From a virus: a stretch of 39,970 bases of DNA. Below, piece after piece: positions 16,015 to 37,226 of this stretch. The notes under the pieces are model-generated. The model ran no database searches. It saw only the letters and a program-made list of their open reading frames with translations, and was not told the origin of the DNA. The translations under genes and the position numbers were made by a program. The stretch lies in UHGV virus genome UHGV-0404708, one strand, 5' to 3'. Within the stretch, counting starts at the first letter, position 1; each line of letters starts with the position of its first letter.

Positions 16015-16328
16015 AGCGATACCTCTACTAGTAAGTTACCCACCACCGCAACGCCAATTGCTGGTGGTGAACTGGACAAGGTTGGCGTACCGGCCTAGTA
16101 GGTACCGGCGCACCTTTCGGTGCCCCTGCCCAGCCCACCATAATTCGGATATGACTGTGCTATACGCATAAAAAAACCACGTCTGGCGTGGTATGCGCCT
16201 ACTAGTAATCCGGGACGCCAATCCCGGCACTGGATTTTGCCAGTGCCCGATTACTATGGCACAAGAGGAGTGCGATGTAAATTTACCGCAAAGGTAAATA
16301 TAAGCACTCCACTTGGTAATTGCAAACC
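16015..16328 (-). ncRNA. heavily structured intergenic element (candidate ncRNA or cis-regulatory leader)
   Basis: 314 nt without convincing ORF between two minus-strand genes; at least five stem-loops, two with identical hexaloop, one GNRA-type loop, an internal hairpin plus T7 run, 8-bp direct repeat GTACCGGC x2. Confidence 0.35.
16170..16192 (-). terminator. intrinsic terminator-like hairpin inside the structured element
   Basis: Minus sense ACCACG-CCAGA-CGTGGT followed by TTTTTTT; T-tract itself flanked by complementary CGCATA/TATGCG. Confidence 0.4.
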
Positions 16329-16586
16329 TTATATGGTTTGTTTTCGTAATTGTTCGGCACAATAGTCGAGATGTGTTTGCAGATCCCGCATAGACATCTG
16401 TGAGCTGGTGACGTAGTTAATCAGTGCAGTCAGTTCGGCAAGTGGGCCATCGACATTAAATCCATCCTTATCGAGATCCCGGAGTAATTTCATCAAGTGC
16501 GATCCCTCCACCAGTGACCTGACGCCTCCCGGCGTGTGAATCCTTTCGGTAAATCCGTCTTCCAGTGGATAGTGATACCGCTGCAT
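16329..16586 (-). CDS. small protein (85 aa), paralog of the C-terminal domain of 14796..15515; LexA-controlled
   Basis: Track ORF 16329..16604 (TTG); ATG 16586 with SD GGAG 8 nt upstream; LexA box and sigma70-like promoter immediately upstream. Confidence 0.65.
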   Translation of the reverse strand: MQRYHYPLEDGFTERIHTPGGVRSLVEGSHLMKLLRDLDKDGFNVDGPLAELTALINYVTSSQMSMRDLQTHLDYCAEQLRKQTI

Positions 16587-16607
16587 CTTATCATCTCCAT
16601 GCAATAA

Positions 16608-16623
16608 CTGTATAAATATACAG
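16608..16623. promoter_or_regulatory. LexA (SOS) box
   Basis: CTGTATAAATATACAG; 20-mer AACTGTATAAATATACAGTA matches the E. coli consensus TACTGTATATATATACAGTA at 18/20. Confidence 0.8.
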
Positions 16624-16632
16624 TACCAAATA

Positions 16633-16661
16633 ATTTATTGTCTATCCAGCACGTTTTGCAA
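16633..16661 (-). promoter_or_regulatory. sigma70-like promoter upstream of the LexA box
   Basis: Minus sense -35 TTGCAA (16656-16661), 17-nt spacer, -10 ATAAAT (16633-16638); LexA box starts about 9 nt downstream of -10. Confidence 0.5.
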
Positions 16662-16662
16662 A

Positions 16663-16677
16663 TCACCTGAAAGGTAA
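16663..16677. promoter_or_regulatory. operator-like palindrome (one mismatch)
   Basis: TCACCTGAAAGGTAA; abuts the -35 of the LexA-controlled promoter. Confidence 0.4.
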
Positions 16678-16705
16678 TATCTATTCGTGTCCATGCTGTT
16701 TTTAC

Positions 16706-16715
16706 CCATATATGG
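16706..16715. promoter_or_regulatory. CCATATATGG palindrome (CCAYATRTGG family)
   Basis: Perfect 10-bp palindrome with T-rich flank, about 65 bp upstream of tail fiber ATG. Confidence 0.35.
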
Positions 16716-16781
16716 TTTTTCAGGTAATAAAATAACCCAGCATGCGGCGCAACGGGTGCTGCGACTATCTGGAGATTTAAA

Positions 16782-18803
16782 ATGACGGTCTCAACCGAAG
16801 TTGGCCACAACGAATACACTGGTAACGGCGTTACGACTACATTCCCTTATACATTCAGGGTTTTCGATAAATCTGATCTGGTAGTGCAGATAGTTGACCT
16901 TGAAGAGAATATCACTGTCCTGGTTCTTGATACCGATTACTCAGTAACCGGGGTGGGGGGATACAATGGTGGCAATGTAATGCTGAGGACAGCGTTAACT
17001 TCTGGTTATCGTATTTTTGTATCGCGTGAGCTGCCTGTTACGCAGGAAACAGATCTGCGCAATCAGGGAAAGTTTCTGGCAGAGGTGCATGAGGATGCAT
17101 TTGATAAGCTGACGATGCTTATTCAGCAAGTATTTTATAACCTGAGCAAGGTAATAAAAGTTCCTGAATCAGGGAACTGGTTGGTTCCAACAATTAGGTT
17201 AAGAAAGAATAAAATCTTTGCATGGGACGAAGAGGGAAATCCAATTGCTGTATCACCTGAATCAGGTAGTGCCTCCGATGTAATGATTGAGCTGGCAAAA
17301 TCATCCGGGGCTGGGTTGATTGGCACAACGTCGGGGGGGACCGTTCAATCAGTGCTGGATGACTGTCATGCAAGGCTCATCACATGTGAGCGCAACAGCC
17401 GGGTGGAAAATTTTTACACGCTGGCGGAAACCTGCACAGCGGAGCTTTTATCGCTGAATGCCCCGGAGGCATATGACAAATCCATTACGCTGACGGTCAA
17501 TGAGGAACTGACCACAGACTATACCGGTCCGGTCACAGGTCATTGCAGCATCGGTAATCCGCAGAACTACACCATTGCGATGTGTACGAGCACAACTCTG
17601 GAATATCAGGTTTCCTCGGTGGTACTGGAGAGTGACGGCACGTTCAGTTTCGCCAGAAGCTGGACGGGGGCTAAGTCTTTTAAACTGTATCGTACATCAA
17701 ATAACGGTCTGGTAACCGTCTGGGAAGATCCGCTGTGTATACGTTCTTACCGGATGCCATCGGATGCCGGAGACGAAACGGTAAGGGTAATGAAAGACCG
17801 TACGTACACCTACGACCAGGCGGTGTCGGCCATTGCCCTGATGGCGCAGGGGCACAGTCAGACTGAGCGTTTTGTTCGCGGGTTGTGTGCGATTGTGGGT
17901 AGTGGTGGTAGCGAGGGGAGTGTGCCTTTTTTCGTGAACCGCATGTCAGCGCAGACATCGTCACAGTATTACCGGACGGGAAACGCAGCGTGGGTGGCGT
18001 ATGCGCTGGCGTATTATCTGCTGAAATATCCGGACGGTGAAATGGCCGTTGTTGCCCGGGATAAACTGACGCAGTGCGCAGAATGGATTGAAACGTTCAG
18101 AGTGGCAGACAACGGAGATATTCGTTATGGGTTGTATACATCCGGTAGCGGACGGTATCTGGATGGCGTCTTTTACCCTGATTTTAAAGCAGACTGGTGC
18201 ACATCGGAGCACCAGTTTGATTTGTGGTTTCTGTTTGACCTGATGGGGCGGGTGGGCTTCACCGGCTACGCTGAAAAGGCGAAAGCCCTGGCGGATGCCA
18301 TTATGGAAAAGCTGTGGGTGGAGGATGAAGGGCGATTTTATGCCGGGATGCGAACCACCGGGCCTGACAAGGCCTCACCACTGGACTGTGCAAGCTGGGG
18401 CGGGCTGTTTGTGTCCAATATCGATATGGAAAAAGCCCGGCGGTGTTTTACTTACCTGGACAGATTCTGGTACGCCACGCACGATGCGACAGGGTACACG
18501 CCTTATCATCCGGAATATGGCTACCCGAATAAACAGCGGGGAGTCTGGGTGGAGGGCAGTGCAGGCGTGGCATTGCTGGCCCGTAGACTGGGAGATGATG
18601 CCACCGCGATGGATATTCTGGCGAGGCTGGCACCACTGCGCACACGTTATGGTTACATTGATTCAAGCGATTATCCAGATAATGATGACATGCCGCCGTG
18701 GCCCTCTTCCTGCAACACGGCCTGGATGATACTGGCATGCGATCCGCAGGGGTTCTGGAACGTTGGGGTAAGTAGTCTGTCTGGACGTTATTATAGGTAT
18801 TGA
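16782..18803 (+). CDS. tail fiber/tailspike with T7-type N-terminal attachment domain and a distinct C-terminal domain
   Basis: 673 aa; N-terminus (YTGNGVTTTFPYTF...DTDY) follows the T7 gp17 N-domain pattern; C-terminal ~380 aa Trp/Tyr-rich. Confidence 0.75.
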   Translation: MTVSTEVGHNEYTGNGVTTTFPYTFRVFDKSDLVVQIVDLEENITVLVLDTDYSVTGVGGYNGGNVMLRTALTSGYRIFVSRELPVTQETDLRNQGKFLAEVHEDAFDKLTMLIQQVFYNLSKVIKVPESGNWLVPTIRLRKNKIFAWDEEGNPIAVSPESGSASDVMIELAKSSGAGLIGTTSGGTVQSVLDDCHARLITCERNSRVENFYTLAETCTAELLSLNAPEAYDKSITLTVNEELTTDYTGPVTGHCSIGNPQNYTIAMCTSTTLEYQVSSVVLESDGTFSFARSWTGAKSFKLYRTSNNGLVTVWEDPLCIRSYRMPSDAGDETVRVMKDRTYTYDQAVSAIALMAQGHSQTERFVRGLCAIVGSGGSEGSVPFFVNRMSAQTSSQYYRTGNAAWVAYALAYYLLKYPDGEMAVVARDKLTQCAEWIETFRVADNGDIRYGLYTSGSGRYLDGVFYPDFKADWCTSEHQFDLWFLFDLMGRVGFTGYAEKAKALADAIMEKLWVEDEGRFYAGMRTTGPDKASPLDCASWGGLFVSNIDMEKARRCFTYLDRFWYATHDATGYTPYHPEYGYPNKQRGVWVEGSAGVALLARRLGDDATAMDILARLAPLRTRYGYIDSSDYPDNDDMPPWPSSCNTAWMILACDPQGFWNVGVSSLSGRYYRY

Positions 18804-18826
18804 TTCCTGATAAAGTAATAATTTAA

Positions 18827-18836
18827 CCACATATGG
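18827..18836. promoter_or_regulatory. CCACATATGG motif (CCAYATRTGG family)
   Basis: Within a ~25-bp block nearly identical, in inverted orientation, to 37171-37200; upstream of lysis genes. Confidence 0.35.
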
Positions 18837-18899
18837 TTTATTGTGTATGATGAACTCATCAATAAGTGGGTTCTTCATGCACATTAAACGGTGGTTTTT

Positions 18900-19304
18900 A
18901 TGTCAGTTCAGCTAACCAGTGAGTCTTTAAATCAGTGGCTTAGTGCGAGTTCTCTTGTTGCGGTGATAGCAGGGGTTCCTCCAGAGGTGGCTTTGGGAGC
19001 TTTGGCTGGGGCGGTAATTTTTGTTACCTCAGCCATCGAGTATCCCATTCATCGCCGGGTTCTCCTGTCTATGCTCAGCTTCCTCTGCGGCCTTCTCTTT
19101 TACAAACCTACAGCATCCATCCTTATCGGTGTAGCCAGCCTGATCCCTACCATCACGCATGACTCTTTCGAGAAAGGGATCGTCTTCTCTGCTGGCGCAT
19201 TTGTGTCGTCAATTGTCGCCGTGCGAATTGGTATATGGCTTTATCACCGTTCCGATAATCCACGAGAGTTAATTCCGGGGAGAAAAGACGATGGTAACGC
19301 ATGA
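18900..19304 (+). CDS. holin-like multi-pass membrane protein
   Basis: Track ORF 18891..19304 (GTG); ATG 18900 preferred; 3-4 hydrophobic helices; first gene of lysis cassette. Confidence 0.5.
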   Translation: MSVQLTSESLNQWLSASSLVAVIAGVPPEVALGALAGAVIFVTSAIEYPIHRRVLLSMLSFLCGLLFYKPTASILIGVASLIPTITHDSFEKGIVFSAGAFVSSIVAVRIGIWLYHRSDNPRELIPGRKDDGNA

Positions 19305-19599
19305 CCTTTTTTTACTTATCACCAATGCAGTTATTTGTACTGGCATAGCAATTCGCGTTGTCACATTCCGGCGTAACGGCTCTCAACATCGAAGATGGGG
19401 AGGGTGGCTTGCTTATTTCCTTATTGTTGCTGCGGCCAGTATTCCTGTTCGTGTCGTCTATGCAATCTGGTTACGCACGCCAATGGCTGTGGATTTATCT
19501 GAGGTCATTATCAACGCTGTCATGCTTGCTGCGGTTATTAAAACGCGCGGTAACGTCGTTCAGATTTTCAAAATAACGAGGTCTAAACATGGAGATTAA
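19291..19599 (+). CDS. holin/antiholin-like membrane protein
   Basis: 102 aa, three hydrophobic segments; between membrane protein and endolysin. Confidence 0.5.
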
Positions 19600-20218
19600 A
19601 CAATTCCAGCGAGCTGCTGGTATTAGCGAGGCGCTGGCCGCTCGCTGGTTCTCGCATATAACTTCTGCGATGAAAGAGTTTGGTATCAGCAAAGCAGAAG
19701 ATCAGGCAATGTTTATTGCTCAAGTCGGGCATGAGTCTGGGGGCTTCACCCGGTTGCAGGAAAATTTCAACTACAGCGTCAGCGGACTGGCTAACTTCGT
19801 TCGGGCTGGGCGTCTCACTCAGGGACAGGCTAATGCACTTGGTCGCCGTGCTGGTGAATCACCATTGCCACTCGAGCGCCAGAGAGCGATCGCCAATCTG
19901 GTGTACAGCAAACGCATGGGGAACAATGCCTCTGGTGATGGCTGGAATTACCGTGGCCGCGGACTTATCCAGATTACCGGTTTGAATAACTATCGTGATT
20001 GCGGAAACGGCCTGAAAGTGGACCTGCTGGAGAATCCTGAACTGCTGGCGCAGGACGAATATGCGGCTCGTAGCGCGGCGTGGTTTTTCTCCAGCAAAGG
20101 CTGCATGAAGTATTCCGGAGATATTGTACGTGTAACTCTGATTATCAATGGTGGCAGGAACGGCATCGACGACCGGCGCGCGCGTTACATCACTGCCAGT
20201 AAGGTGCTGGCGGTATGA
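19589..20218 (+). CDS. endolysin, glycoside hydrolase family 19 (chitinase-like) type
   Basis: Motifs [12 protein letters not shown] and [11 protein letters not shown] typical of GH19-type phage endolysins. Confidence 0.85.
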
Positions 20219-20697
20219 TCTGGGCATTCGTAAAAGCATACTGGAAACAGTTGGTTATCATAGCGATCCTTGCTGTTCTGGTCATGTCAGGAGTTGTAGC
20301 CTGGAATGCACACGGCAGTCGTCAGTACGACGCCGGGTATGCGCAGGCGAAAGAAGACCGCAAAGCCGAAGAAGAAAAAGTTCGTCAGCACTACGAACAG
20401 GAGAAAGCGACTAATGAACGTGAAGCGCAGCAGAGGATCGATCAGGCGCGCAGCGATGCTCTTGATGCTGCCGCTCGCGCTGGCAGGTTGCAGCAACAGC
20501 TCGTTGCCATCCGTGAGCAGCTCAGGCAGTATAACGCCATTGTCGGCGCTGGGGCGTCAGCCGCAGATACCGGAGTTTTGCTTGCCGACGTGTTCAGCAA
20601 ATCTCTCGAGAGAAATAGACAACTGGCAGAGTATGCTGACCGGGCAGCCGAAGCCGGAAGAGTCTGCGAAAAACAGTACGACACCCTGACCAGATAG
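20215..20697 (+). CDS. i-spanin (Rz-like)
   Basis: 160 aa; N-terminal TM helix then charged coiled-coil region; ATGA overlap with endolysin stop. Confidence 0.7.
20414..20689 (+). CDS. o-spanin (Rz1-like lipoprotein) embedded in the +1 frame of the i-spanin gene
   Basis: In track ORF 20306..20689; ATG 20414 (alt 20456) gives signal peptide with lipobox LAGC, then Pro/Ser-rich short mature protein. Confidence 0.65.
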   Translation: MNVKRSRGSIRRAAMLLMLPLALAGCSNSSLPSVSSSGSITPLSALGRQPQIPEFCLPTCSANLSREIDNWQSMLTGQPKPEESAKNSTTP

Positions 20698-20870
20698 CAT
20701 GGCATTTTTCATGGTACTGATTTTCGGTGACGGTATATAAAACGGTATGGTGAAAATCAAGTTGCGGAAAGTTGTTATCAGTCAATTGGTTATGTATGTC
20801 GTAAATAATTGAGTGGGAATGATTAACAGCTAACTCATAGCAAATCATTCCTATTCAGATGCCAACTCAA

Positions 20871-20900
20871 CCCTCTGTTTTTGCAGAGGGTTTTTGTTTT
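20871..20900 (+). terminator. rho-independent terminator after lysis cassette
   Basis: CCCTCTG-loop-CAGAGGG followed by TTTTTGTTTT. Confidence 0.75.
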
Positions 20901-20957
20901 TATGTATTCATTTCTATTCACTCTACACCATATTTTTCGGCGGTACAGGTGACGGTA

Positions 20958-20972
20958 TTACCTTAAAGGTAT
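20958..20972. promoter_or_regulatory. operator-like palindrome (one mismatch)
   Basis: TTACCTTAAAGGTAT, about 45 bp upstream of integrase start. Confidence 0.4.
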
Positions 20973-21014
20973 ACTCTCATACCGTCATGAAAATGGTTTC
21001 TATACGGGTGAATT

Positions 21015-22271
21015 GTGCTTACCGATACAAAATTAAAGAACCTCAAGCCACAGGACAAACTGTACAAAGTTTCCGATCGTGACGGGCTGTATGTAGCTGT
21101 GCTTACGTCAGGTACGGTCTCGTTTCGCTATGACTACCGTATCAACGGTCGCCGCGAAACACTGGTAATTGGGCAGTATGGGCGTGACGGTATCAGCCTG
21201 GCAGAAGCGCGAGAAGAACTGATTGCTGCAAAGAAGCTGCTTAAAGCAGGCCAGTCACCGGCTGCGGCTAAACGTGACGGTATCAAAAAGATTCGTGGTG
21301 CCGAGACGTTTGCGGTACATACCGACAGTTATATGAAACACGTCATCCTGGCTGAAAGTACCCGCGCAATGAAGCTGGCAGTGATCGACCGTGACATACT
21401 TCCTGTTCTTGGCAACAAAATGATGGCTGAAATTACCACATCGATGGTTCGTGATTTGTGTGACAGGATTGTCGAACGCGGTGGTCGGGCAACAGCAGTG
21501 CAGGCCAGGGAGATCATCAGCAGCGTATACCGTCACGCCAATGACCGTGGTCATGGTTTGTTTAATCCTGCGGCTGACATTAAACCTTCGTCTATCGCCA
21601 TATTTAAACCACGAGAGCGAACACTGACACCAGAAGAAATTGGCCTGTTCTTCCGCACGCTGGATGCCATTGGTGCTATGGGCACTATGAAAATGGCTTT
21701 AAAGCTGGTGCTTATCACTATGGTTCGTAAAGGCGAATTCACCAATGCAACGTGGGATGAAATAGATTTTAAAAAATGGACATGGACAATTCCTTCAGAC
21801 CGCATGAAGGGAAGCCGGGCGCACGTTATTTACCTGCCTAAACAGGCACAGGATATATTGGTTGGGTTGCAGATGTGCGCTGGTGGAAGTGAATATCTGG
21901 TTCCTGGTCGTTACAATTTCCGGAAGCCATTATCTAATGCCGCGCTGAACTCTCTGATCGACAGAACGGTGAAAATAATAAATGAAGATGGTGAGCATAT
22001 TCAGGACTTCACCGTACACGATATGCGCCGTACAGCAAGTACGTTGTTGCATGAGGCTGGTTATCCTTCAGACTGGATTGAAAAGGCTCTGGCACATGAG
22101 CAGAAAGGTGTGCGCGCCGTATATAACAAAGCGGAATACGCCAGACAGCGCGCCTACATGTTGCAGCAGTGGGCCGATATGATTGATTCCTGGATTAACG
22201 GGGAGCATACGGATCTGATTCCGTTCTCCCCGTCGAAGTTTGAGAAGTGGATGGAAGACAGTAATAAATAA
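21015..22271 (+). CDS. int: tyrosine integrase, P4-type
   Basis: 418 aa, GTG start; N-terminus MLTDTKLKNLKP... typical of P4-family integrases; recombinase-like C-terminal half. Confidence 0.9.
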   Translation: MLTDTKLKNLKPQDKLYKVSDRDGLYVAVLTSGTVSFRYDYRINGRRETLVIGQYGRDGISLAEAREELIAAKKLLKAGQSPAAAKRDGIKKIRGAETFAVHTDSYMKHVILAESTRAMKLAVIDRDILPVLGNKMMAEITTSMVRDLCDRIVERGGRATAVQAREIISSVYRHANDRGHGLFNPAADIKPSSIAIFKPRERTLTPEEIGLFFRTLDAIGAMGTMKMALKLVLITMVRKGEFTNATWDEIDFKKWTWTIPSDRMKGSRAHVIYLPKQAQDILVGLQMCAGGSEYLVPGRYNFRKPLSNAALNSLIDRTVKIINEDGEHIQDFTVHDMRRTASTLLHEAGYPSDWIEKALAHEQKGVRAVYNKAEYARQRAYMLQQWADMIDSWINGEHTDLIPFSPSKFEKWMEDSNK

Positions 22272-22273
22272 TT

Positions 22274-26485: not shown

Positions 26486-26500
26486 TTACCGTTGAGGTAA
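26486..26500. promoter_or_regulatory. operator (OL-like), TTACC-N5-GGTAA
   Basis: TTACCGTTGAGGTAA exact; overlaps predicted start region of leftward promoter. Confidence 0.6.
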
Positions 26501-26501
26501 T

Positions 26502-26528
26502 AATTATGCGTATCTGGTTTGATGTCAA
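26502..26528 (-). promoter_or_regulatory. leftward early promoter (PL-like)
   Basis: Minus sense -35 TTGACA (26523-26528), 15-17-nt spacer, -10 ATAATT/TAATTA (26502-26508); flanked by two operators. Confidence 0.55.
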
Positions 26529-26547
26529 TAGATATGAGTTAAAAAAA

Positions 26548-26562
26548 TTACCCGTCAGGTAA
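26548..26562. promoter_or_regulatory. operator (OL-like), TTACC-N5-GGTAA
   Basis: TTACCCGTCAGGTAA exact; about 20 bp upstream of the -35. Confidence 0.6.
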
Positions 26563-26619: not shown

Positions 26620-27204
26620 TTATTGTTTGCTTTTTTCGTTCTGGTTGATGACAAATTCAATGTAACTTTCGATCTTTGCTTTCTCGGTTTCGGGTAACAA
26701 TGCGTAGCGCGAGCGGTCATAGTTGATGGTCGCAGGGTCGTGCGGGTGAATCAGTAATTCATAGCCGTGACGCCCGAATGCGGATGCAACATTCTCCAGG
26801 GTGGAAATGGAAACGCTGACCTCATTGTTTAACAGGCGGCTGATTGTCACCTGGGCGACGCCGGATGCGCGGTGAAGTTTTCCCTGCGTTGAAAGGTCGC
26901 GGCTTTCGCTCATCCAGCGTTCCAGGTTGTGAGCCGCCAGCTGACCAATGTCGCTTGGGCCGACAGGCTGAAAACCTTCCTGAGAAAGCGAGCGATCGAT
27001 ATCAAGCCAGTTACGGGGTTTATTGGCGGCAGCTTCAATTTTTCGTGCAACCTGGTCGCCGATAACCTTCTTGCCAAGAGCCCAGCGGTTTACCAGATTT
27101 GCCTGAGTTCCAAGTTTTTCTGCCATCCGCGTCTGAACACCATTGAATTCACGGTCGATCAAGTCGTTGAGATTTTGCCTGCGGACGTCCTGGATACTTT
27201 TCAT
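26620..27204 (-). CDS. immunity repressor with two HTH-type segments, no autopeptidase domain
   Basis: 194 aa; HTH-like segments near aa 24-46 and 120-155; divergent from Cro-like gene across operator region; no Ala-Gly...Ser...Lys LexA-type cleavage module. Confidence 0.7.
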   Translation of the reverse strand: MKSIQDVRRQNLNDLIDREFNGVQTRMAEKLGTQANLVNRWALGKKVIGDQVARKIEAAANKPRNWLDIDRSLSQEGFQPVGPSDIGQLAAHNLERWMSESRDLSTQGKLHRASGVAQVTISRLLNNEVSVSISTLENVASAFGRHGYELLIHPHDPATINYDRSRYALLPETEKAKIESYIEFVINQNEKSKQ

Positions 27205-27358: not shown

Positions 27359-27589
27359 ATGAGCGATAACGGACATTTCGATTTCAAAAAGCACTGGCTT
27401 GCACTTACTCCGGATGAGCGTGAAGCCTTCGCACAGGAAGCCGGAACGACGAGTCACTATATCCAGACTCACTTAACAGGTAAGCGCAAAATGCCAGGTA
27501 AAGTATTGATGAATGGGCTTTTTAAAGCCTGTAAAACAAGACAATGGCTGCGCTCAAAAGCAGAACTGGCATACTTCTTCTACTCATGA
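27359..27589 (+). CDS. Cro/YdaS-like small DNA-binding protein
   Basis: 76 aa, divergent from repressor across tripartite operator; followed by terminator. Confidence 0.6.
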   Translation: MSDNGHFDFKKHWLALTPDEREAFAQEAGTTSHYIQTHLTGKRKMPGKVLMNGLFKACKTRQWLRSKAELAYFFYS

Positions 27590-27644: not shown

Positions 27645-27659
27645 GTACCTCAAAGGTAA
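27645..27659. promoter_or_regulatory. operator-like palindrome (one mismatch)
   Basis: GTACCTCAAAGGTAA just after the terminator. Confidence 0.4.
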
Positions 27660-27739
27660 TAAAAAACCAAATCTGGTTGATCTTTTTTTTGTGTCAGCAC
27701 AAAATGACCGTAATCCCAATACTAATAACAGGGCTTACC

Positions 27740-27940
27740 ATGGAAATCATTACACGTATTGATGCCGCAAAGCGCGGACTTAAACGCTACTACACCGGAA
27801 AACCATGTAAGCATGGACATGACAGTGAACGCTGGGTTTACAACGGACACTGTGTTGAGTGCACCATGGAATCAAACCGTCGCATCAGGGCAGAGATTAA
27901 GCAGATCATGATTAATTCCTCCCCACAACACTCAAGCTGA
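27740..27940 (+). CDS. small Cys/His-rich protein (possible zinc-binding regulator)
   Basis: Track ORF 27677..27940 (TTG); ATG 27740; CKHGH...CVEC cluster. Confidence 0.45.
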   Translation: MEIITRIDAAKRGLKRYYTGKPCKHGHDSERWVYNGHCVECTMESNRRIRAEIKQIMINSSPQHSS

Positions 27941-27955
27941 TAGCGGAGATTAATC

Positions 27956-29583: not shown

Positions 29584-29598
29584 TTACCTATAAGGTAA
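29584..29598. promoter_or_regulatory. operator-like palindrome
   Basis: TTACCTATAAGGTAA exact. Confidence 0.5.
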
Positions 29599-29645
29599 CA
29601 AAATATTCTAAACTCTATTGATTTCGTGTCTTATGTGGTTTTTAA

Positions 29646-29660
29646 TTACCTTAGAGGTAA
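29646..29660. promoter_or_regulatory. operator-like palindrome overlapping the SD of 29664..30008
   Basis: TTACCTTAGAGGTAA exact; right half-site doubles as GAGGT Shine-Dalgarno 3 nt before ATG. Confidence 0.45.
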
Positions 29661-29663
29661 ATC

Positions 29664-30008: not shown

Positions 30009-30069
30009 ATCGACGATCTTTTTAGTTATCAATGTAATCAATAAGTTATGTGGATAAGCGAGGGTAAAG

Positions 30070-30630: not shown

Positions 30631-31259
30631 ACAAGATTGACTATCAGGCACTGCGTGAGGCGGCAGAGCGTGCAATTCCGGCAATGGAACGCCTGTTAAT
30701 GTTGCCAGTTGATGATGATCTGATAAGCGAGCAGGAACTTAAAGATAGCGGTGTTGATATTGATGCGCTCAACGCCTTCAAAATTCTGGCCGGACCAGAA
30801 ACCGTGCTGGCGCTACTGGATGAACGGGAAAGAAACCAGCAATACATCAAATCTCGCGACCAGGAGAACGATGATATTGCGCTAACGGTAGGGAAGCTGT
30901 TAATCGAAAACGGTCAGCTTGTTGCCGATACGCTACGCCACTTAGCTGATAACGAAATCGACTCTGATTATTTTGCTATCACCTCAACTAATGAGAACGG
31001 TACTGAAATTGATCATGAGATGTCTATTACCGATTACGCACTGCAAGCTGCCGGAACTGTAGACGAATTGGTTGCGGCGCTGGAATCCGCAGAGAAGCGC
31101 ATTGCAGAACTGGAAGCGCGGGAAATACTGCTCCCGGTACGTAGCAGCATGCTTCATCGAACAGATTTTCACGATGATTACCAAACGGTAATGGCATACA
31201 AAGTTTCTGAAGTCATCGATGCAATCCGCGCTACTGGCATTCGCATCAAAGGAGAGTGA
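30627..31259 (+). CDS. hypothetical protein ending in junction motif GIRIKGE
   Basis: 210 aa; C-terminus encoded by repeated junction sequence. Confidence 0.55.
   Translation: MNKIDYQALREAAERAIPAMERLLMLPVDDDLISEQELKDSGVDIDALNAFKILAGPETVLALLDERERNQQYIKSRDQENDDIALTVGKLLIENGQLVADTLRHLADNEIDSDYFAITSTNENGTEIDHEMSITDYALQAAGTVDELVAALESAEKRIAELEAREILLPVRSSMLHRTDFHDDYQTVMAYKVSEVIDAIRATGIRIKGE
31236..31259. repeat. module-junction repeat, copy 1
   Basis: GGCATTCGCATCAAAGGAGAGTGA: last codons plus stop of upstream gene and SD of next. Confidence 0.8.
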
Positions 31260-31264
31260 GTGAT

Positions 31265-31462
31265 ATGGATAAAAACACCACTGCTTACTGGAATCTGTCA
31301 CTTGATACCGAATGCCCCAAATGTGGTCACAATTTCGATCTGCTCTGTGATGCTGATTTCTGGGAGTTTTCTGGAGCAAAACAGGCATGTGAAGAAATAA
31401 AAGGTTACGAAACATGCTGCCCAGAATGTAACCATGAATTTAAAACAGATTTTGTGTATTGA
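31265..31462 (+). CDS. small zinc-ribbon protein
   Basis: Track ORF 31256..31462 (GTG); ATG 31265; two CxxC pairs (CPKCGH...CCPECNH). Confidence 0.5.
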   Translation: MDKNTTAYWNLSLDTECPKCGHNFDLLCDADFWEFSGAKQACEEIKGYETCCPECNHEFKTDFVY

Positions 31463-31472
31463 GGCATAACGA

Positions 31473-31943
31473 ATGACCACTTTTACTAAAGAACAATTAA
31501 TTGATCATATTAATGATCGCAAAGATGTCCGTCAGAGAATGTTGGAAACTGCGACGATTTCTTCTGGATTCAGAGAATATCTTGAAAGAGAGCTTGCTAC
31601 CGATCAGATTGCCCTAGCTTCGCTGGAAGCAGAACCGATGGCATGGCGATATCGCTACGTGAAAAAAAGCATTACGGACTCACAGGGGGAGCCGTGGGTT
31701 GGTGACTGGAAATATGTACCGACAAAAGAGGATTGCAACGACAGACCGAACTATGAAATTCAGGCGTTATTCACTGCCCCGCCTGTGCCACTGACACCAG
31801 AAGGATTGATTAAAGCAGTGCGCTTCTATGAACAGGTTAAGCGTGAAAATCCGCCAGTCGAAACCGGAGTATGGAAAGACGCTGTTGACTGGGTGCTCAA
31901 AGAGGCTTGCCAGGCTGTAAACATTGGCATCAAAGGAGAGTGA
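31473..31943 (+). CDS. hypothetical protein, N-terminal paralog of 32592..33176
   Basis: 156 aa; shares MTT(F/I)TK start and IALASLEA(E/K)P motif with 32592..33176; ends in junction motif. Confidence 0.55.
   Translation: MTTFTKEQLIDHINDRKDVRQRMLETATISSGFREYLERELATDQIALASLEAEPMAWRYRYVKKSITDSQGEPWVGDWKYVPTKEDCNDRPNYEIQALFTAPPVPLTPEGLIKAVRFYEQVKRENPPVETGVWKDAVDWVLKEACQAVNIGIKGE
31922..31943. repeat. module-junction repeat, copy 2
   Basis: CATTGGCATCAAAGGAGAGTGA, 21/22 identical to copies 1 and 3. Confidence 0.8.
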
Positions 31944-31945
31944 GA

Positions 31946-32437
31946 GTGCAGATTTCACCGGTTACTCTTCGTGTTGCGAAGGCGTTTATATCCAGACATC
32001 ACCGACACAATAAACCCCCGGTGGGGCATAAATTCAGCATTGGTCTGAGAAATGATGCCGGAGAATTGATAGGTGTGGCGACAGCCGGTAGACCTGTTGC
32101 ACGACATTTGGACGATGGATTAACGCTTGAAGTAAATCGCACATGTACCACAGGAGAACGCAACGCTAACAGCGCGCTTTATGGTGCTGTCTGGCGGGCA
32201 GCAAAAGCTATGGGTTATCAACGTTGTATTACGTACACCCAGGCAGATGAATCAGGAGCATCTCTTCGCGCAGCTGGTTTTGTTCGTGTGAAAGAGCTTC
32301 CTCCAAGAAAAAGCTGGGCGGAATCAAGCGTCGCCTTGCGGAGTAAACGCGATCCGGTCGGAAACGGTGGTGTTCCTCGTGTGCTCTGGGAAATCAGGAG
32401 AATGAGTACCACTGGCATTCGCATCAAAGGAGAGTGA
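31946..32437 (+). CDS. hypothetical protein (possible acyltransferase-like), ends in junction motif
   Basis: Track ORF 31907..32437 overlaps upstream gene; GTG 31946 just after the upstream stop with junction SD 7 nt before. Confidence 0.5.
   Translation: MQISPVTLRVAKAFISRHHRHNKPPVGHKFSIGLRNDAGELIGVATAGRPVARHLDDGLTLEVNRTCTTGERNANSALYGAVWRAAKAMGYQRCITYTQADESGASLRAAGFVRVKELPPRKSWAESSVALRSKRDPVGNGGVPRVLWEIRRMSTTGIRIKGE
32414..32437. repeat. module-junction repeat, copy 3
   Basis: GGCATTCGCATCAAAGGAGAGTGA identical to copy 1. Confidence 0.8.
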
Positions 32438-32438
32438 T

Positions 32439-32588
32439 ATGGCTAAGTACATCGTGACTATCGAAGGATTTAATGATTGCAAGGTTGTTGAGTTTGAAGC
32501 AGACACGCCAGAGGATGCCGAAGAAATAGGCAGAGACATATTCTATGAAGAATGCAACTACGGCGTATCACCTGCTACAGAGGACTAA
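32439..32588 (+). CDS. small hypothetical protein (49 aa)
   Basis: Not in track; ATG 32439 with junction-repeat SD GGAGAG 6 nt upstream; translation MAKYIVTIEGFNDCKVVEF... Confidence 0.4.
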   Translation: MAKYIVTIEGFNDCKVVEFEADTPEDAEEIGRDIFYEECNYGVSPATED

Positions 32589-32591
32589 CAC

Positions 32592-33176
32592 ATGACCACT
32601 ATTACCAAAGGGCGACTGCTGACAATCAAGCAGTGGCGCGAAACATACGGACCGGGTAGCAACGTTGTACTGCCAGCAGAAGAAGCGGAAGAACTGGCAC
32701 GAATTGCTCTGGCATCGCTCGAAGCAAAACCAATAGGTGCATTCCACATTGCAGAACAGCAAGTTGACGGCACAAGTGACTACCTCAAGGATGGAGAATG
32801 GCCTATTGATAATGGGACAATTGAAGTATACGCCGCCCCTCCAGTGCCAGTAGTACCGGAAGAAAAACCAATGCCTAATCCTCTTAGCATGTACGCGGTT
32901 GATGCTGTTGCCGCTATTGCAGAGGTGAGAGGCTGGAACGCCTGTCGTGCCGCTATGCTTCAGAGTCAAGGTAATTGCATTAAGGATGGTTGGATAAGCT
33001 GTAGTGAGCGAATGCCCGCTCAAGATGATTGGATTTTAATTTATTCAAAGCACGGTGAGTATATGGCAGGACAGGTGCAAGGGGAATACGTGGAGTTGAG
33101 CGATGGCACTTTATCGTGGTTAGGGAACGCCTTGTTCTGGATGCAGCTACCAGAACCGCCGCAGGAGGTGAAGTGA
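32592..33176 (+). CDS. hypothetical protein with DUF551-like C-terminal domain
   Basis: 194 aa; N-terminus paralogous to 31473..31943; C-terminus W..CSERMP...WMQLPEPP pattern. Confidence 0.55.
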   Translation: MTTITKGRLLTIKQWRETYGPGSNVVLPAEEAEELARIALASLEAKPIGAFHIAEQQVDGTSDYLKDGEWPIDNGTIEVYAAPPVPVVPEEKPMPNPLSMYAVDAVAAIAEVRGWNACRAAMLQSQGNCIKDGWISCSERMPAQDDWILIYSKHGEYMAGQVQGEYVELSDGTLSWLGNALFWMQLPEPPQEVK

Positions 33177-33544
33177 TGGACTATTCACAGTTAAGTGATT
33201 TTGAAATTAACAGAATGGTAGGAGACATAATTTTTAAAGGCCTTTGGGCGTGTAAACCGGAAACATCAGGGAATAACACCAACAAATGGTATTACGGAAA
33301 TACTGATACAACTTTTGAGCCATTAAACCCTTTACCTGACTACTGCAATGATCCGAGAGCTGCATGGCCTGTAATCGCAAAACATCAGATCAGCATATGT
33401 GCATACGAAAGAAATAATCATGGAATGAAGAATGAATATTGGTGGGAGGCGGATAGATTTTGTGAATTTATTACCATAGACAATAACCCACTACGCGCCG
33501 CCATGATTGTCTTTCTCATGATGCAGGAAAATCAGAATGGCTAA
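33176..33544 (+). CDS. hypothetical protein
   Basis: Track ORF 33116..33544; ATG 33176 overlaps upstream stop (TGATG). Confidence 0.5.
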   Translation: MDYSQLSDFEINRMVGDIIFKGLWACKPETSGNNTNKWYYGNTDTTFEPLNPLPDYCNDPRAAWPVIAKHQISICAYERNNHGMKNEYWWEADRFCEFITIDNNPLRAAMIVFLMMQENQNG

Positions 33545-33875
33545 ATCAGCAGCAGAGCGCAAAGCCGCTCAGAGAGCCAGACAAGCTGCATCTGGTGTGC
33601 GTAAGCTGGAGATTGTGCTTGATGCTCAGGAAATTGAAATGCTGGAGCGTAACTGTGCCACGCGTCGCCCCGGGCGTGCGCCTTACGAATTTGGTGAGTA
33701 TATAGCGTTACTGATCCGCCAGGATGATGCACGCGTGCACGGGCGTATAAAATCTATCAGCAGAAAACGTTGCGGTAAGTGTGGCGAGAGAGTTCCAGTT
33801 AATTCATGTCCGTGTAATGGTGACTCACAATGCTGGGTGACTAAAGGCTGGCATGAAACGAAATTAATAGTGTGA
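33537..33875 (+). CDS. Arg-rich, Cys-cluster protein (candidate late-gene regulator)
   Basis: 112 aa; basic N-terminus, C-terminal CGKCGERVPVNSCPCNG; last gene before terminase operon; stop codon inside GTGACATGTCAC palindrome. Confidence 0.45.
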   Translation: MAKSAAERKAAQRARQAASGVRKLEIVLDAQEIEMLERNCATRRPGRAPYEFGEYIALLIRQDDARVHGRIKSISRKRCGKCGERVPVNSCPCNGDSQCWVTKGWHETKLIV

Positions 33876-33883
33876 CATGTCAC
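33872..33883. repeat. GTGACATGTCAC palindrome, copy 2
   Basis: Perfect 12-bp palindrome containing the TGA stop of 33537..33875, same register as copy 1. Confidence 0.8.
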
Positions 33884-33924
33884 GAGTAGATTATGCATGA
33901 TGAATTTGATGGGTTTTGAATACT

Positions 33925-33950
33925 GCCGCCAACTATGGCGGCTTTATTTT
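33925..33950 (+). terminator. rho-independent terminator before terminase operon
   Basis: GCCGCC-AACTAT-GGCGGC followed by TTTATTTT. Confidence 0.7.
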
Positions 33951-33961
33951 GCATGGTACTA

Positions 33962-33976
33962 TTACCACAACGGTAA
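33962..33976. promoter_or_regulatory. operator-like palindrome upstream of terminase genes
   Basis: TTACCACAACGGTAA exact; a weaker copy TTACCACGGTGGTTA follows at 33980-33994. Confidence 0.5.
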
Positions 33977-33993
33977 CTATTACCACGGTGGTT

Positions 33994-34590
33994 ATGATGC
34001 CTGCTGAACCTAAAACCTATAAACGCAAATCAACGCAATTTAAGCCACTAACAGCAATGCAGGAGGCTTATTGCCAGTCATACATCAAAACGCCTGAAAA
34101 CCAGACTCAGGCAGCGATTAACGCAGGATTTTCCCCAAATACAGCGGCAGTTAAAGCCAGTGTCATGATGCGCGATGAACGCATTCAAAAACGGATTGCC
34201 GAGTTGATGGAGGAGCGCAACAAACGAATACGCGTCAGTGCTGATTACGTTCTCATGCGGCTGGTGGAGATCGACCAGATGGACGTGATTGATATCCTCA
34301 ACGACGATGGGAGCCTTAAGCCAATCCGCGAGTGGCCGAAAATCTGGCGCACTACGCTTAGCGGCTTTGATCTGTCATCGACCATCATGAACATGAACGA
34401 GGATTCGATAGAGACAATCCTCAAAAAAATTAAATGGCCTGACAAGGTGAAGAACCTCGAACTGATTGGTAAGCACGTCGACGTCAACGCATTCAAAGAA
34501 CGCCTAGATGTTAATGTGAATGTGACAATTGCTGATCGCATAGCAGCAGCCAGGAAGCGACTCAAAGAACGTCAGGATGGTAATCAGTGA
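33994..34590 (+). CDS. terS: terminase small subunit
   Basis: Track ORF 33916..34590; ATG 33994/33997; small-terminase-like composition; stop overlaps terL start. Confidence 0.7.
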   Translation: MMPAEPKTYKRKSTQFKPLTAMQEAYCQSYIKTPENQTQAAINAGFSPNTAAVKASVMMRDERIQKRIAELMEERNKRIRVSADYVLMRLVEIDQMDVIDILNDDGSLKPIREWPKIWRTTLSGFDLSSTIMNMNEDSIETILKKIKWPDKVKNLELIGKHVDVNAFKERLDVNVNVTIADRIAAARKRLKERQDGNQ

Positions 34591-36062
34591 CAGATACAGT
34601 GTTATCTCCTGAAGAGCAGTTGATCGAGGATATTGCAGGGTTTACTCACGATCCGCTTGGTTATGCCATCTATGCGTTCCCGTGGGGGGAAGAGGGGACT
34701 GAACTGGCACATGCTACTGGCCCACGTCAGTGGCAGGCTGATGCGTTCCGAGAGATACGTGATCACCTGCAGAATCCAGAGACGCGCTATCAGCCGCTTA
34801 TGCTGGCACGCGCTTCTGGTCACGGTATTGGTAAATCCGCATTCATTTCAATGCTGATCAACTGGGGCATGTCCACTTGCGAGGATTGTAAGGTCGTGGT
34901 GACCGCCAACACCGACAACCAGCTACGAACGAAGACCTGGCCGGAAATTATCAAGTGGTCGAACCTTGCTATCACGAAAGACTGGTTTACCTGTACCGCT
35001 ACCGCGATGTACAGCAATGACCCTGGGCACGACAAGCGGTGGCGAGCTGACGCAATCCCCTGGTCTGAGCACAACACTGAGGCATTCGCCGGACTACACA
35101 ACGAGCGCAAACGCATCATCGTGGTATTCGATGAAGCGTCGAACATTGCGGATCTGGTGTGGGAAGTTGCTGAGGGGGCGCTTACGGACGAAGACACTGA
35201 GATTATCTGGGTGGCGTTCGGAAACCCTACACGTAACACCGGACGTTTCCGCGAATGTTTCCGCAAATATAAACACCGCTGGAAAACTGCGCAGATTGAC
35301 AGCCGAACGGTGGAAGGCACTAACAAACAGCAGTTGCAGAAATGGGTTGATGACTACGGGGAAGACAGCGACTTCGTTAAAATCCGTGTGCGCGGCATAT
35401 TCCCTGATGCATCTGAATTGCAGTTTATCCCTACCGGTCTTACTGATGAGGCAATGAAACGGGTGGTAACCGCTGCGCAGGTGGCGCATGCTCCGGTGAT
35501 AATCGGCGTTGACCCGGCATACTCCGGCGTTGATGACGCTGTGATATACCTGCGGCAGGGGCTGCACAGTAAGGTGCTATGGACTGGCAACAAGACCACT
35601 GACGATCTGATTATGGCGAAGCGTATCGCTGACTTTGAAGACCAGTACCAGGCTGACGCGGTGTTCATCGACTTCGGTTACGGAACCGGTCTGAAGTCAA
35701 TCGGTGACGGATGGGGTCGTACATGGCAACTTGTTCCGTTCGGTGGCGCGTCTACTGACCCGCAGATGCTCAACAAGCGTGGGGAGATGTTCAATTCATG
35801 CAAGACATGGCTGAGGCTGGGCGGCATGCTGGATGACCAGGAAACAGCAGACGACCTGTCGGCGGCAGAGTACAAAGTTCGAGTGGATGGTAAAATCGTT
35901 ATCGAACCGAAGGAAGATATCAAGGAGCGGCTTGGGCGTTCGCCGGGTAAAGGCGATGCGCTACTGCTGACGTTTGCGTTCCCTGTGTCTAAGCGTCTGC
36001 GAATTCCCGGGCAGCAGAACCAGCAAGGCAAGGCCATCACAGATTACGATCCCTATGCTTAA
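34587..36062 (+). CDS. terL: terminase large subunit
   Basis: 491 aa, GTG start overlapping terS stop; Walker A-like GHGIGKS; nuclease-type C-terminal half. Confidence 0.9.
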   Translation: MTDTVLSPEEQLIEDIAGFTHDPLGYAIYAFPWGEEGTELAHATGPRQWQADAFREIRDHLQNPETRYQPLMLARASGHGIGKSAFISMLINWGMSTCEDCKVVVTANTDNQLRTKTWPEIIKWSNLAITKDWFTCTATAMYSNDPGHDKRWRADAIPWSEHNTEAFAGLHNERKRIIVVFDEASNIADLVWEVAEGALTDEDTEIIWVAFGNPTRNTGRFRECFRKYKHRWKTAQIDSRTVEGTNKQQLQKWVDDYGEDSDFVKIRVRGIFPDASELQFIPTGLTDEAMKRVVTAAQVAHAPVIIGVDPAYSGVDDAVIYLRQGLHSKVLWTGNKTTDDLIMAKRIADFEDQYQADAVFIDFGYGTGLKSIGDGWGRTWQLVPFGGASTDPQMLNKRGEMFNSCKTWLRLGGMLDDQETADDLSAAEYKVRVDGKIVIEPKEDIKERLGRSPGKGDALLLTFAFPVSKRLRIPGQQNQQGKAITDYDPYA

Positions 36063-36112
36063 TCCGCTGGTTGGGATAATGTCGTTGATATCCTCTGATG
36101 AGGATAAAACAA

Positions 36113-36139
36113 AGCCAGCTCATCGGCTGGCTGTTTGTG
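36113..36139. terminator. bidirectional terminator-like hairpin
   Basis: AGCCAGC-loop-GCTGGCT with GTTTGTG on plus side and TTGTTTTA on minus side; between convergent terL and 36153..36524. Confidence 0.5.
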
Positions 36140-36148
36140 ACATGTCAC
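36137..36148. repeat. GTGACATGTCAC palindrome, copy 3
   Basis: Perfect 12-bp palindrome 5 nt beyond the stop of minus-strand gene 36153..36524, adjacent to terminator hairpin. Confidence 0.8.
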
Positions 36149-36152
36149 GGTG

Positions 36153-36524
36153 TTATTGCTCGCTTAGCTTCTGCTTCAGCAAGTAACCTTCGAGCATCCA
36201 GATTTTGTTTACAGCATTCTGCCGGGCAATCTTCCGACCAATTTCTGCATCAAAGTTTTCCGGGCTTGCACAGGCGCTCTCTCCGGTGACGGTGAAGCCG
36301 TTGCGCAGCACCAGGACGCAGAACGTCAGCAGAGAAAGTGATTCGTGCGGCTGGTAGTTTACCTCCCCGCCAGTATGTTTCGCTTTTATGGCTTTGCCAA
36401 AGGCACCATCTTCTGCTGTGAAATATGCCTCCTGAGCAATAATGCCTTCGATATGGTCTGGCGTAACGCGCGGTGCCGTTTTGCCTTTCTCAACGATTTC
36501 TTTTTCGATTTGCTGGTCGTTCAT
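36153..36524 (-). CDS. hypothetical protein (N4 Gp49/Sf6 gene 66-like small phage protein)
   Basis: 123 aa; SD AAGGTGAG before ATG; family call from memory, weak. Confidence 0.5.
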   Translation of the reverse strand: MNDQQIEKEIVEKGKTAPRVTPDHIEGIIAQEAYFTAEDGAFGKAIKAKHTGGEVNYQPHESLSLLTFCVLVLRNGFTVTGESACASPENFDAEIGRKIARQNAVNKIWMLEGYLLKQKLSEQ

Positions 36525-36535
36525 AATCTCACCTT

Positions 36536-36559
36536 AAAAAAATGCCCGGCGAACCGGGC
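36536..36559 (-). terminator. rho-independent terminator downstream of tRNA
   Basis: Minus sense GCCCGG-TTCG-CCGGGC followed by T7-8. Confidence 0.7.
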
Positions 36560-36722
36560 GAACTGGAAGCAATGAGTTATGCCTTCCGTGGCTGTACTGG
36601 TTTACAGCATGAAGTCATCGCAATGGCGTCCTGCTGTAAAAAGGGTGGTGGTAGTCCTTCAAGGGAAACCATCACCGCCAAGCCCCTGGAACTTCTGGCA
36701 TCACGGTCCTTAGGCGTGATTC

Positions 36723-36799
36723 TGGCGTGGCATGCAGGATTCGAACCTGCGACCAACCGCTTAGAAGGCGGTTGCTCTGTCTAACTGAGCTAATGCCAC
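36723..36799 (-). tRNA. tRNA-Arg (anticodon UCU)
   Basis: Minus-strand read GTGGCATTAGCTCAGTTAGACAGAGCAACCGCCTTCTAAGCGGTTGGTCGCAGGTTCGAATCCTGCATGCCACGCCA folds as cloverleaf: 7-bp acceptor, GCTC/GAGC D-stem, ACCGC/GCGGT anticodon stem with loop CU-UCU-AA, GCAGG/CCUGC T-stem with TTCGAAT loop, encoded CCA. Confidence 0.9.
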
Positions 36800-37121
36800 A
36801 ACGCTGAGAGCACTTAGCCTGTTAAGGCGCCACACTTTGTCGCGGCTCCATAAATGCTCTCATCGTTGTACCCTCGTCTCTTCCGAGGCGTCACACCGAA
36901 TCGCCGGGATGGTGAATCCCCGTGCGCGGAATAAAACCGCTCGACTTGCACATTCCGGCTACCTGGTTCGTTTGCCCGAGAAAGGGAGGGTGCCCCTTAA
37001 ACGTATCCAGACCGCTATCGGCGCATGTGCCATACGCCGTACTGCTCAAAATAAAAGCTCACTCCACCTGTTCAATTTAACGACAAGCCAGTCAGGTTAG
37101 TAACCGGAATGAGCTCCTTAG

Positions 37122-37136
37122 TTACCTGAAAGGTAA
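37122..37136. promoter_or_regulatory. operator-like palindrome
   Basis: TTACCTGAAAGGTAA exact; intergenic between tRNA and portal operon. Confidence 0.5.
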
Positions 37137-37177
37137 TAATTCACGCGTTAAATGTCAACCGTCTACGATAAATAAAT

Positions 37178-37186
37178 CATATGTGG
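37178..37186. promoter_or_regulatory. CATATGTGG motif (CCAYATRTGG family)
   Basis: Inside ~25-bp block (37171-37200) near-identical to reverse complement of 18815-18840; about 45 bp upstream of 37227 gene. Confidence 0.35.
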
Positions 37187-37226
37187 TTAAATTGGTAATA
37201 ATTTAATTGCGTACGGAGTCATTGAT

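Follow-up and report, generated by a model that had tools for sequence, protein, structure and literature searches.

Control of promoters from paired sites is well described: auxiliary or cooperative operators and repressor looping are known from lac O1/O2/O3, gal OE/OI, lambda OR1-OR2 and the flanking sites of phage 186 CI, and activator-dependent phage promoters carry elements such as the P1 Lpa palindrome near -22 and the T4 MotA box at -30. In the epsilon15/SPC32H-type phages the antirepressor Ant binds the C-terminal domain of the repressor, Rep. Rep operators are annotated in the epsilon15 record (AY150271.2) as 'repressor' protein_bind sites of the form ATTACC-N5-GGTAAT, and Rep, according to the literature cited in PMC9638917, contacts DNA as a tetramer in which each DNA-binding pair is drawn from different dimers, the dimer itself binding weakly. 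Here we analysed virus genome UHGV-0404708 (39,970 bp, hereafter the window), which is complete and circularly permuted and belongs to a temperate podovirus of the epsilon15/phiV10 group (genus Uetakevirus), and found that a 14-bp imperfect palindrome accompanies Rep operators at seven separate regulatory regions, at distances close to whole helical turns. The palindrome resembles the Rep operators of epsilon15/SPC32H-type phages in its ACC/GGT core and in lying in the same regulatory regions of the same genomes. Unlike the operator, in which TTACC and GGTAA flank five unconstrained bases, it consists of AWCC and GGTT(T/A) around six bases with a conserved ATAT, and binding of Rep to it is putative. 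Our preferred, still tentative reading is an auxiliary operator that works with the Rep operator, so that a Rep tetramer would clamp promoters within the Rep/Ant circuit.

An earlier note on this DNA had proposed a recurrent motif, CCAYATRTGG with a T-rich flank, as a late or middle promoter element or a regulator binding site. All of the motif strings it listed are present at their coordinates, with the gene context it gave for them, and the inverted near-identical pair it described is real, as 18815-18840 and the reverse complement of 37171-37200 match at 22 of 26 aligned positions. The literal 10-mer CCAYATRTGG has two exact matches against 0.14 expected (0 of 100 shuffles reach two) and falls to background once one mismatch is allowed (5 against 4.67 expected). 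The core TAT[AG]TGGTT has five matches where 0.41 are expected (0 of 100 shuffles), the 14-mer A[AT][CT]CA[TC]AT[AG][TAC]GGTT has four where 0.03 are expected, and a position weight matrix (PWM) built from orthologous sites finds 14 matches scoring at least 10 in the window compared to 4.5 ± 2.5 in shuffles. Because the top 11 PWM matches (6 loci) are all intergenic or on the stop codon of the antirepressor gene ant, while only 8.6% of the window is intergenic, the motif is indeed enriched in intergenic DNA. The recurrence of the motif is real and non-random; the list of its members contained one false entry and lacked two weaker ones, one in P_L, the early-left promoter (26506), and one at 27665, beyond the 3' side of the cro-like gene. 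The false entry is 30047..30057 (TATGTGGATAA), a chance match with a PWM score below 10 that is not a family member because it is unconserved: relatives read TTATACGGG there, with TTATACGGGTAA the reading in all except phiV10. At 29632 the right arm is kept and the left arm is not in this window, and a T-rich flank is no general trait of the family.

The conserved element proper is 14 bp long, an imperfect palindrome with the consensus A-W-Y-C-A-T-A-T-R-T-G-G-T-T or AWCC-N6-GGTT, of which CCAYATRTGG is the core, as follows from the symmetry of its conserved bases. When orthologous regions of E. coli, Salmonella, Enterobacter and Klebsiella phages are aligned, it stands out as a phylogenetic footprint in front of the portal operon and the tail-fibre gene as well as the lysis cassette and the DUF1064/RuvC gene; larger IMG/VR samples, with 108 unique contexts for portal, 70 for lysis and 62 for tail fibre, bear this unit out. 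In the tail-fibre alignment the central ATAT never varies, nor do the symmetric partners A120/T133 and C123/G130 around it, and the palindrome bases GG..T that fall in the promoter spacer are still conserved. In the lysis alignment both A..CC and GGTT are conserved, the left arm A..CC being kept although it lies outside the RNA stem discussed below, and the portal block TGGTTAAATTGGTAATAATTTAA is essentially invariant among 108 unique relatives. The half-sites have the (A)CC/GG(T) core in common with the Rep operators, whose natural GGTTA variants include the operator at 33980. No annotation covers a palindrome-like element in the epsilon15 or phiV10 records, the Rfam search returned no family over the motif sites, and to our knowledge none of the consensuses of CRP, FNR, Fis, IHF, PhoP, ArcA, CpxR, OmpR, GntR-type regulators or sigma-32/54/28/E fits it. 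Strong copies begin at 16325, 16704, 18825 and 37175 and weak copies at 26506, 27665 and 29627, the last belonging to a predicted internal early-right promoter (P_R2). These palindromes and the Rep operators paired with the strong ones are as follows.

16704..16717, plus strand: tail-fibre palindrome ACCCATATATGGTT, PWM score 20.7, conserved in 6 genomes, 40.5 bp from the operator at 16663-16677
18825..18838: lysis palindrome AACCACATATGGTT, near-perfect, PWM scores 22.0/20.3, overlapping the predicted -35/spacer of TTAACC-N17-TATGAT
37175..37188, plus strand: portal palindrome AATCATATGTGGTT, PWM score 21.1, 8-genome alignment, 52.5 bp from the operator at 37122-37136
16325..16338, minus strand: palindrome at the 3' end of ant, AACCATATAAGGTT, PWM score 20.2, overlapping the ant stop codon
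26506..26519, plus strand: P_L palindrome ATGCGTATCTGGTT, weak, PWM score 12.8, 19.5 bp from the operator at 26486 and 42.5 bp from that at 26548
27665..27678: post-cro palindrome AACCAAATCTGGTT, PWM score 13.5, upstream of the gene at 27740-27940 and 19.5 bp from the operator at 27645-27659
29627..29640, plus strand: P_R2 copy with the right arm only, TGTCTTATGTGGTT, between the operators at 29584 (42.5 bp) and 29646 (19.5 bp)
16663..16677: Rep operator TCACCTGAAAGGTAA, partner of the tail-fibre palindrome
37122..37136: Rep operator, partner of the portal palindrome, sharing bases with the -10 of a minus-strand promoter that is conserved
16283..16297: Rep operator paired with the palindrome at the 3' end of ant

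The Rep operators (TTACC-N5-GGTAA), the first motif family of this genome, have 14 copies in the window with at most one mismatch, and matches with two mismatches are also in excess (44 found vs ∼11 expected). We scanned 7 genomes with the palindrome PWM and the operator pattern, retaining palindromes that score at least 12.5 and centre-to-centre distances within 80 bp. A Rep operator lies at 19.5, 40.5–43.5 or 52.5 bp from 31 of the 36 palindromes, and no other distance occurs. The 41 operator-palindrome distances fall at 19.5 (11), 40.5 (8), 41.5 (3), 42.5 (7), 43.5 (5) and 52.5 bp (7), all within 0.15 turn of 2, 4 or 5 helical turns, and operator and palindrome should therefore face the same side of the DNA. 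The five palindromes with no operator are three strong copies (window lysis 18825, eps15 33749 and SPC32H 34799) and two low-scoring ones (phiV10 21870 and 24288).

By locus, the distances are 52.5 bp at portal, 40.5 bp at the tail fibre, 43.5 bp at lysis, 41.5 bp at the 3' end of ant, 19.5 and 42.5 bp at both P_L and P_R2, and 19.5 bp downstream of cro (40.5 bp in BUCT554). The spacing is kept as the DNA between operator and palindrome diverges: the tail-fibre distance is 40.5 bp in 60/60 unique contexts, the lysis distance is 43.5 ± 1 bp (2 bp in one case; range 41.5–44.5 bp) in 50/50 operator-bearing contexts, and at portal, where the distance is 52.5 bp in 7/7 genomes, no indels are apparent between operator and palindrome among the 108 unique sequences. 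The orthologues of the ant palindrome in phiV10 (20539) and Tyrion (21435) are likewise 41.5 bp from an operator. In Tyrion the P_L orthologue is the perfect ATCCATATATGGTT at the same two distances as in the window, and the P_R2 orthologues of eps15, Tyrion and Kp4865, which score 14.1–20.2, also keep both of theirs. Downstream of cro the orthologues in phiV10, Tyrion and Kp4865 are 19.5 bp from an operator and that of BUCT554 (13522) is at 40.5 bp, while those of eps15 and SPC32H have no operator (at most one mismatch) within 80 bp.

The distribution of the palindrome is complementary to that of closely paired full operators. In all 7 genomes it is absent from the rep-cro region and from the region upstream of terS, where full operators stand 17–20 bp apart, and operator plus palindrome at 19.5 bp is the arrangement found at P_L, at P_R2 and downstream of cro. 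The palindrome is therefore present exactly where an operator has no full neighbour, and at 19.5 bp it takes the place that the second Rep operator, 17–20 bp from the first, holds at terS and P_R.

Within the promoters, all of which are predicted from sequence, the palindrome occupies different positions. It lies inside the spacer at P_L, TTGACA(26528)-N17-AATTAT(26500), and inside the 17-bp spacer at P_R2, TTGATT(29618-29623)-N17-TTTAAT(29641-29646). It covers the -35 hexamer at the lysis promoter, TTAACC-N17-TATGAT, and at the tail-fibre promoter, which in most relatives is TTCATA-N17-TAGAAT with the -35 hexamer formed by the left half of the palindrome. At the minus-strand promoter TTGCAA(16325-16320)-N17-TATATT(16302-16297), predicted to drive isrK, a C4 antisense RNA and an ORF6N antirepressor-like gene, the start is predicted within the operator 16283-16297 and the palindrome is centred at about -41.5. 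The centre of the palindrome is at about -26.5 for lysis, -27.5 to -29.5 for portal and -29.5 for the tail fibre, and at -19.5 or -41.5 elsewhere. The palindrome is not late-specific, as early, late and antirepressor promoters carry it alike. A regulator binding site in promoter regions, one half of the original proposal, agrees with a symmetric imperfect palindrome that is footprinted at orthologous promoters and overlaps predicted core promoters. The other half, a late or middle promoter element, is not supported, since the palindrome is also found at the early-left, internal early-right, post-cro and second-antirepressor sites and its distance to the -10 varies. We also considered a conserved -10 directly upstream of the motif, with the start at its R position, and rejected it: AATAAT, TATGAT and TATTAT are plausible in some lineages only, and roughly half of the 41 lysis contexts and the majority of those at the tail fibre lack the key -11 A or -7 T.

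The late promoters bring the question of function to a point. Their only full operator lies ∼70–80 bp upstream of the predicted start, on otherwise reasonable sigma-70 promoters, which is too far for simple occlusion and therefore argues for a promoter-proximal partner site. If the palindrome is that partner, as we tentatively propose, one DNA-binding unit of the Rep tetramer would sit on the strong operator and the other on the palindrome, the two sites being either adjacent (19.5 bp) or joined over a short bend or loop of 40–52 bp. The bridged sites would trap the -35/spacer region and so keep early, late and accessory promoters silent in the lysogen, and Ant, by breaking the Rep tetramer, would free all of them at once. 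Looping repressors likewise combine a strong with a weaker site separated by integral helical turns, bracket or overlap the promoter, and use a tetramer with two DNA-binding units. In contrast to these systems the 40–52 bp between palindrome and operator is shorter than classical loops, the half-site spacing differs so that the palindrome is not a degenerate copy of the operator, and occupation of both sites by one protein is only putative here.

Several points weigh against this proposal. The N6 spacing, GGTT flank and conserved ATAT centre, compared to the N5, GGTAA and free centre of the operator, look like a distinct specificity, and a loop of 40–52 bp is very tight for a repressor bridge. 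At the tail fibre the half that is well conserved is also the site of the -35 hexamer TTCATA, and conservation in the other arm is looser. As orthologous sites are not independent, the phasing argument rests on ∼7 loci. Furthermore, 20 of the 70 lysis contexts, including the window, lack the full operator and still conserve the palindrome fully, so other constraints (the RNA hairpin or the promoter) must maintain it there. Where relatives have a full operator 43.5 bp upstream, the window has only the degenerate operator-like TTCCTGATAAAGTAA at 18804-18818; in many of the 20 operator-free contexts a half-site, GGTAA, is still present 5 nt upstream of the palindrome, in keeping with the 19.5-bp geometry. 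Finally, we found no mention of the motif in the literature, a search that did not extend to the primary Rep papers, which may already define or exclude the site.

The distinct specificity could instead belong to a different dimeric phage regulator that cooperates or competes with Rep, the 76-aa Cro-like protein, the 66-aa product of 27740-27940 and the AlpA-like or PerC-like protein being the candidates. The palindrome's own spacing and conserved centre are typical of a separate helix-turn-helix (HTH) specificity, all candidates are present and 52–94% conserved in every motif-bearing genome, and helical phasing with Rep operators would equally suit contact between two different proteins. Nevertheless, we consider this possibility on the unlikely side: the palindrome is missing from the rep-cro intergenic region, the expected place for a Cro-type protein, a lytic-phase repressor on late core promoters would be counterproductive, and an activator needs a fixed position whereas the centres vary between -19.5, about -27 to -29.5, and -41.5. 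Neither does a separate regulator predict the complementary distribution with adjacent full operators. The idea of the earlier note, a late or middle activator box that replaces the -35 in the manner of P1 Lpa, T4 MotA, Mu C/Mor or P2 Ogr, appears very unlikely. Of the four best copies in the window, three do belong to portal, tail fibre and lysis, where a conserved -10-like hexamer follows just downstream and the -35 is poor, and as with P1 Lpa and T4 MotA a conserved element precedes a -10 with a poor -35 (at portal, and at lysis in the window). Unlike those elements the palindrome is not restricted to late promoters (P_L, P_R2, the site downstream of cro and the antirepressor-2 promoter have it too), is variable in position, differing by 3 bp in its distance to the -10 among the late promoters and by more elsewhere, and has a repressor operator nearby (31/36). 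The tail-fibre promoter of most relatives, TTCATA-N17-TAGAAT, needs no activator, and Rep operators at late promoters argue for direct repression and against a transcriptional cascade. A protein that could serve such a box is the conserved putative regulator phrog_536 ('transcriptional regulator', 33537-33875, 112 aa), encoded by the last early-right gene before terS and without a Pfam match. Its N-terminus resembles a ribbon-helix-helix, its C-terminus is rich in Cys (CGKCG...CPC...C), and ZF40, N15-like Klebsiella phages, Yersinia phages and Vibrio phages have homologues. A link between this protein and the motif is not supported, as Pectobacterium phage ZF40 encodes a 63–66% identical tblastn homologue while its intergenic DNA holds no copy of the motif (best PWM score 13.2, inside a gene).

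The two remaining explanations do without a dedicated DNA-binding protein. In one, TRTGGTT is the transcribed 5' base of late leader hairpins and is kept by constraints on RNA or on the start site (fold-back inhibition, RNase III/E processing, 5' stabilisation). At the lysis locus this has substance: the leader hairpin 18825-18896 (plus strand; -32.5 kcal/mol, z-score -6.2) has the palindrome as its 5' base, which is where the 5' arm begins, with the 3' arm ending in GGUGG, the first lysis gene's Shine-Dalgarno. In alifold alignments of 6 and 41 sequences changes are mostly pair-preserving, with 10 kinds of pair-preserving transitions vs 1 pair-breaking in the 41 sequences, many of the changes wobble-preserving and none a double change, and in the epsilon15 record this stretch carries the annotation of an RNase III site. 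With a candidate promoter (-10 TATnAT) and the palindrome in its 5' arm and the Shine-Dalgarno reached by its 3' arm, this long leader hairpin resembles fold-back inhibition as in the IS10 transposase leader, and RNase III sites of phage late mRNAs; we read it as a fold-back hairpin with a promoter inside it, which would keep read-through transcripts silent. Beyond this locus the evidence thins. The portal leader could pair over 15 bp into a hairpin whose R position shows one compensatory change (G-C to A-U), set against an uncompensated A.C there in ∼9 unique sequences, and in the tail-fibre leader a weak fold is possible between UUUUCAGGUA and the Shine-Dalgarno region; neither folds better than shuffles (z-scores -0.9 and -0.8). 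Only the lysis copy thus has a statistically strong fold, so that fold-back systems explain one locus and not the family. Even in the lysis 5' arm the n of TAT[n]AT takes all four bases, as in a -10 hexamer, and breaks its pair in 6/41 sequences, and the left arm is conserved though it is part of no stem. The palindrome is untranscribed in the relevant direction in the P_L and P_R2 spacers and upstream of the -35 of the isrK promoter, and operator phasing is left unexplained. RNA structure explains part of the conservation at lysis but not family-wide, and as the general cause it is improbable. The other explanation grants the palindrome no function of its own: promoter modules spread by duplication or recombination would be kept by ordinary sigma-70 constraints. 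It gains from the partial identity of the motif with the -35 hexamers TTCATA (tail fibre) and TTAACC (lysis) and from the 22 of 26 bases that the portal and lysis blocks have in common. It is hard to believe, given that the palindrome occurs in both orientations and at differing promoter positions (-35 hexamer, spacer, upstream of the -35), that spacer bases GG..T are conserved and that strict operator phasing is not expected from promoter constraints alone.

Returning to Rep as the protein on the palindrome, its C-terminal XRE-type HTH domain (Pfam HTH_3, residues ∼106–147) raises a further, quite improbable version, in which Rep would have two reading heads, the N-terminal domains for TTACC-N5-GGTAA and the C-terminal HTH for AWCC-N6-GGTT, making the target of each tetramer a bipartite operator; Ant, being a ligand of the C-terminal domain, would then directly strip Rep off the promoter-proximal palindrome, and the whole genome would be gated by Rep in a single step, with no late activator. 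The phylogeny of Rep does not discriminate here. Its homologues, from a phage collection and 185k GTDB species genomes, are all in Uetakevirus-type prophages with the same operator and the same palindrome, and because they always carry both motifs, covariation of Rep specificity with the motif gives no test. More distant homologues of the N-terminal part only (Hydrogenovibrio, Thiomicrospira, Paraburkholderia) are uninformative on the motif. Rep, the Cro-like protein, the 27740 product, the PerC-like and AlpA-like proteins and the phrog_536 protein are all conserved in all motif-bearing genomes.

The gene order of the window agrees with the annotated phiV10 and epsilon15 records, and its portal region is 97–98% identical to phiV10 and ∼76% to epsilon15 and SPC32H. 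Its main parts are the following.

1-13418, plus strand: structural operon
minus strand: accessory gene block, including the LexA-controlled antirepressor gene ant (16329-16586)
16782-18803: tail fibre gene
18900-20697: lysis cassette, then integrase, then the early-left operon
26620-27204, minus strand: rep
27359-27589: cro-like gene, then the early-right operon, terS, terL, a minus-strand gene and tRNA-Arg
from 37227: portal operon

A number of observations concern the surroundings of these sites. Directly downstream of ant and of the Rep-controlled minus-strand promoter, Rfam gathering-level matches on the minus strand place the isrK Hfq-binding RNA at 16246-16170 and a C4 antisense RNA at 16145-16060, followed by a 168-aa open reading frame (ORF) and an ORF6N-domain antirepressor-like protein (14796-15530). 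This block looks like a second antirepressor module of the P1 immI/Gifsy-1 kind, absent from epsilon15; the window, phiV10 and Tyrion all have both the 41.5-bp pair at the 3' end of ant and a second antirepressor module downstream. The P_L (26486-26562) and P_R2 (29584-29660) regions share an identical layout, with operators at about -62 and +1 that are exactly 62 bp apart. Beside the portal operon lies a conserved promoter on the minus strand, with its TTGACA at 37158-37153, that is directed at tRNA-Arg(UCU) (36799-36723). This tRNA appears to be Rep-controlled because the -10 of the promoter falls inside the operator 37122-37136. The terS ORF as annotated in phiV10 (TTG start, here 33916) spans a terminator-like hairpin and the adjacent Rep operators 33962 and 33980, and translation more probably begins at the ATG used in epsilon15 fashion, at 33996. 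The tail-fibre leader (16740-16775; L001 19975-20005) contains a small conserved hairpin, GCGC-loop-GCGC, between promoter and Shine-Dalgarno, in which one pair alternates between GC and GU. Lastly, 30049-30057, between the DUF1064 gene and the eae-like gene, is a 9/9 match to the DnaA box (TTATCCACA on the minus strand, TGTGGATAA on the plus strand), a match to the consensus only, which is present in the window and phiV10 and absent from Tyrion, epsilon15, SPC32H and BUCT554.

Structural work on a non-canonical tetrameric repressor and the antirepressor that acts on it uses the epsilon15/phiV10/SPC32H-type phages as a model, and they also serve as reporter phages for Salmonella and E. coli O157. 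For engineering, the palindrome and operator elements mark control regions to keep or to remove when payloads are inserted. Should a different protein bind the palindrome, these phages would possess an unrecognised regulator acting at every phage promoter. If, on the other hand, the palindrome is the second half of Rep's operators, it would explain how one tetramer can silence promoters that have their only canonical operator 60–80 bp upstream, and why operators are scattered genome-wide, late genes included.

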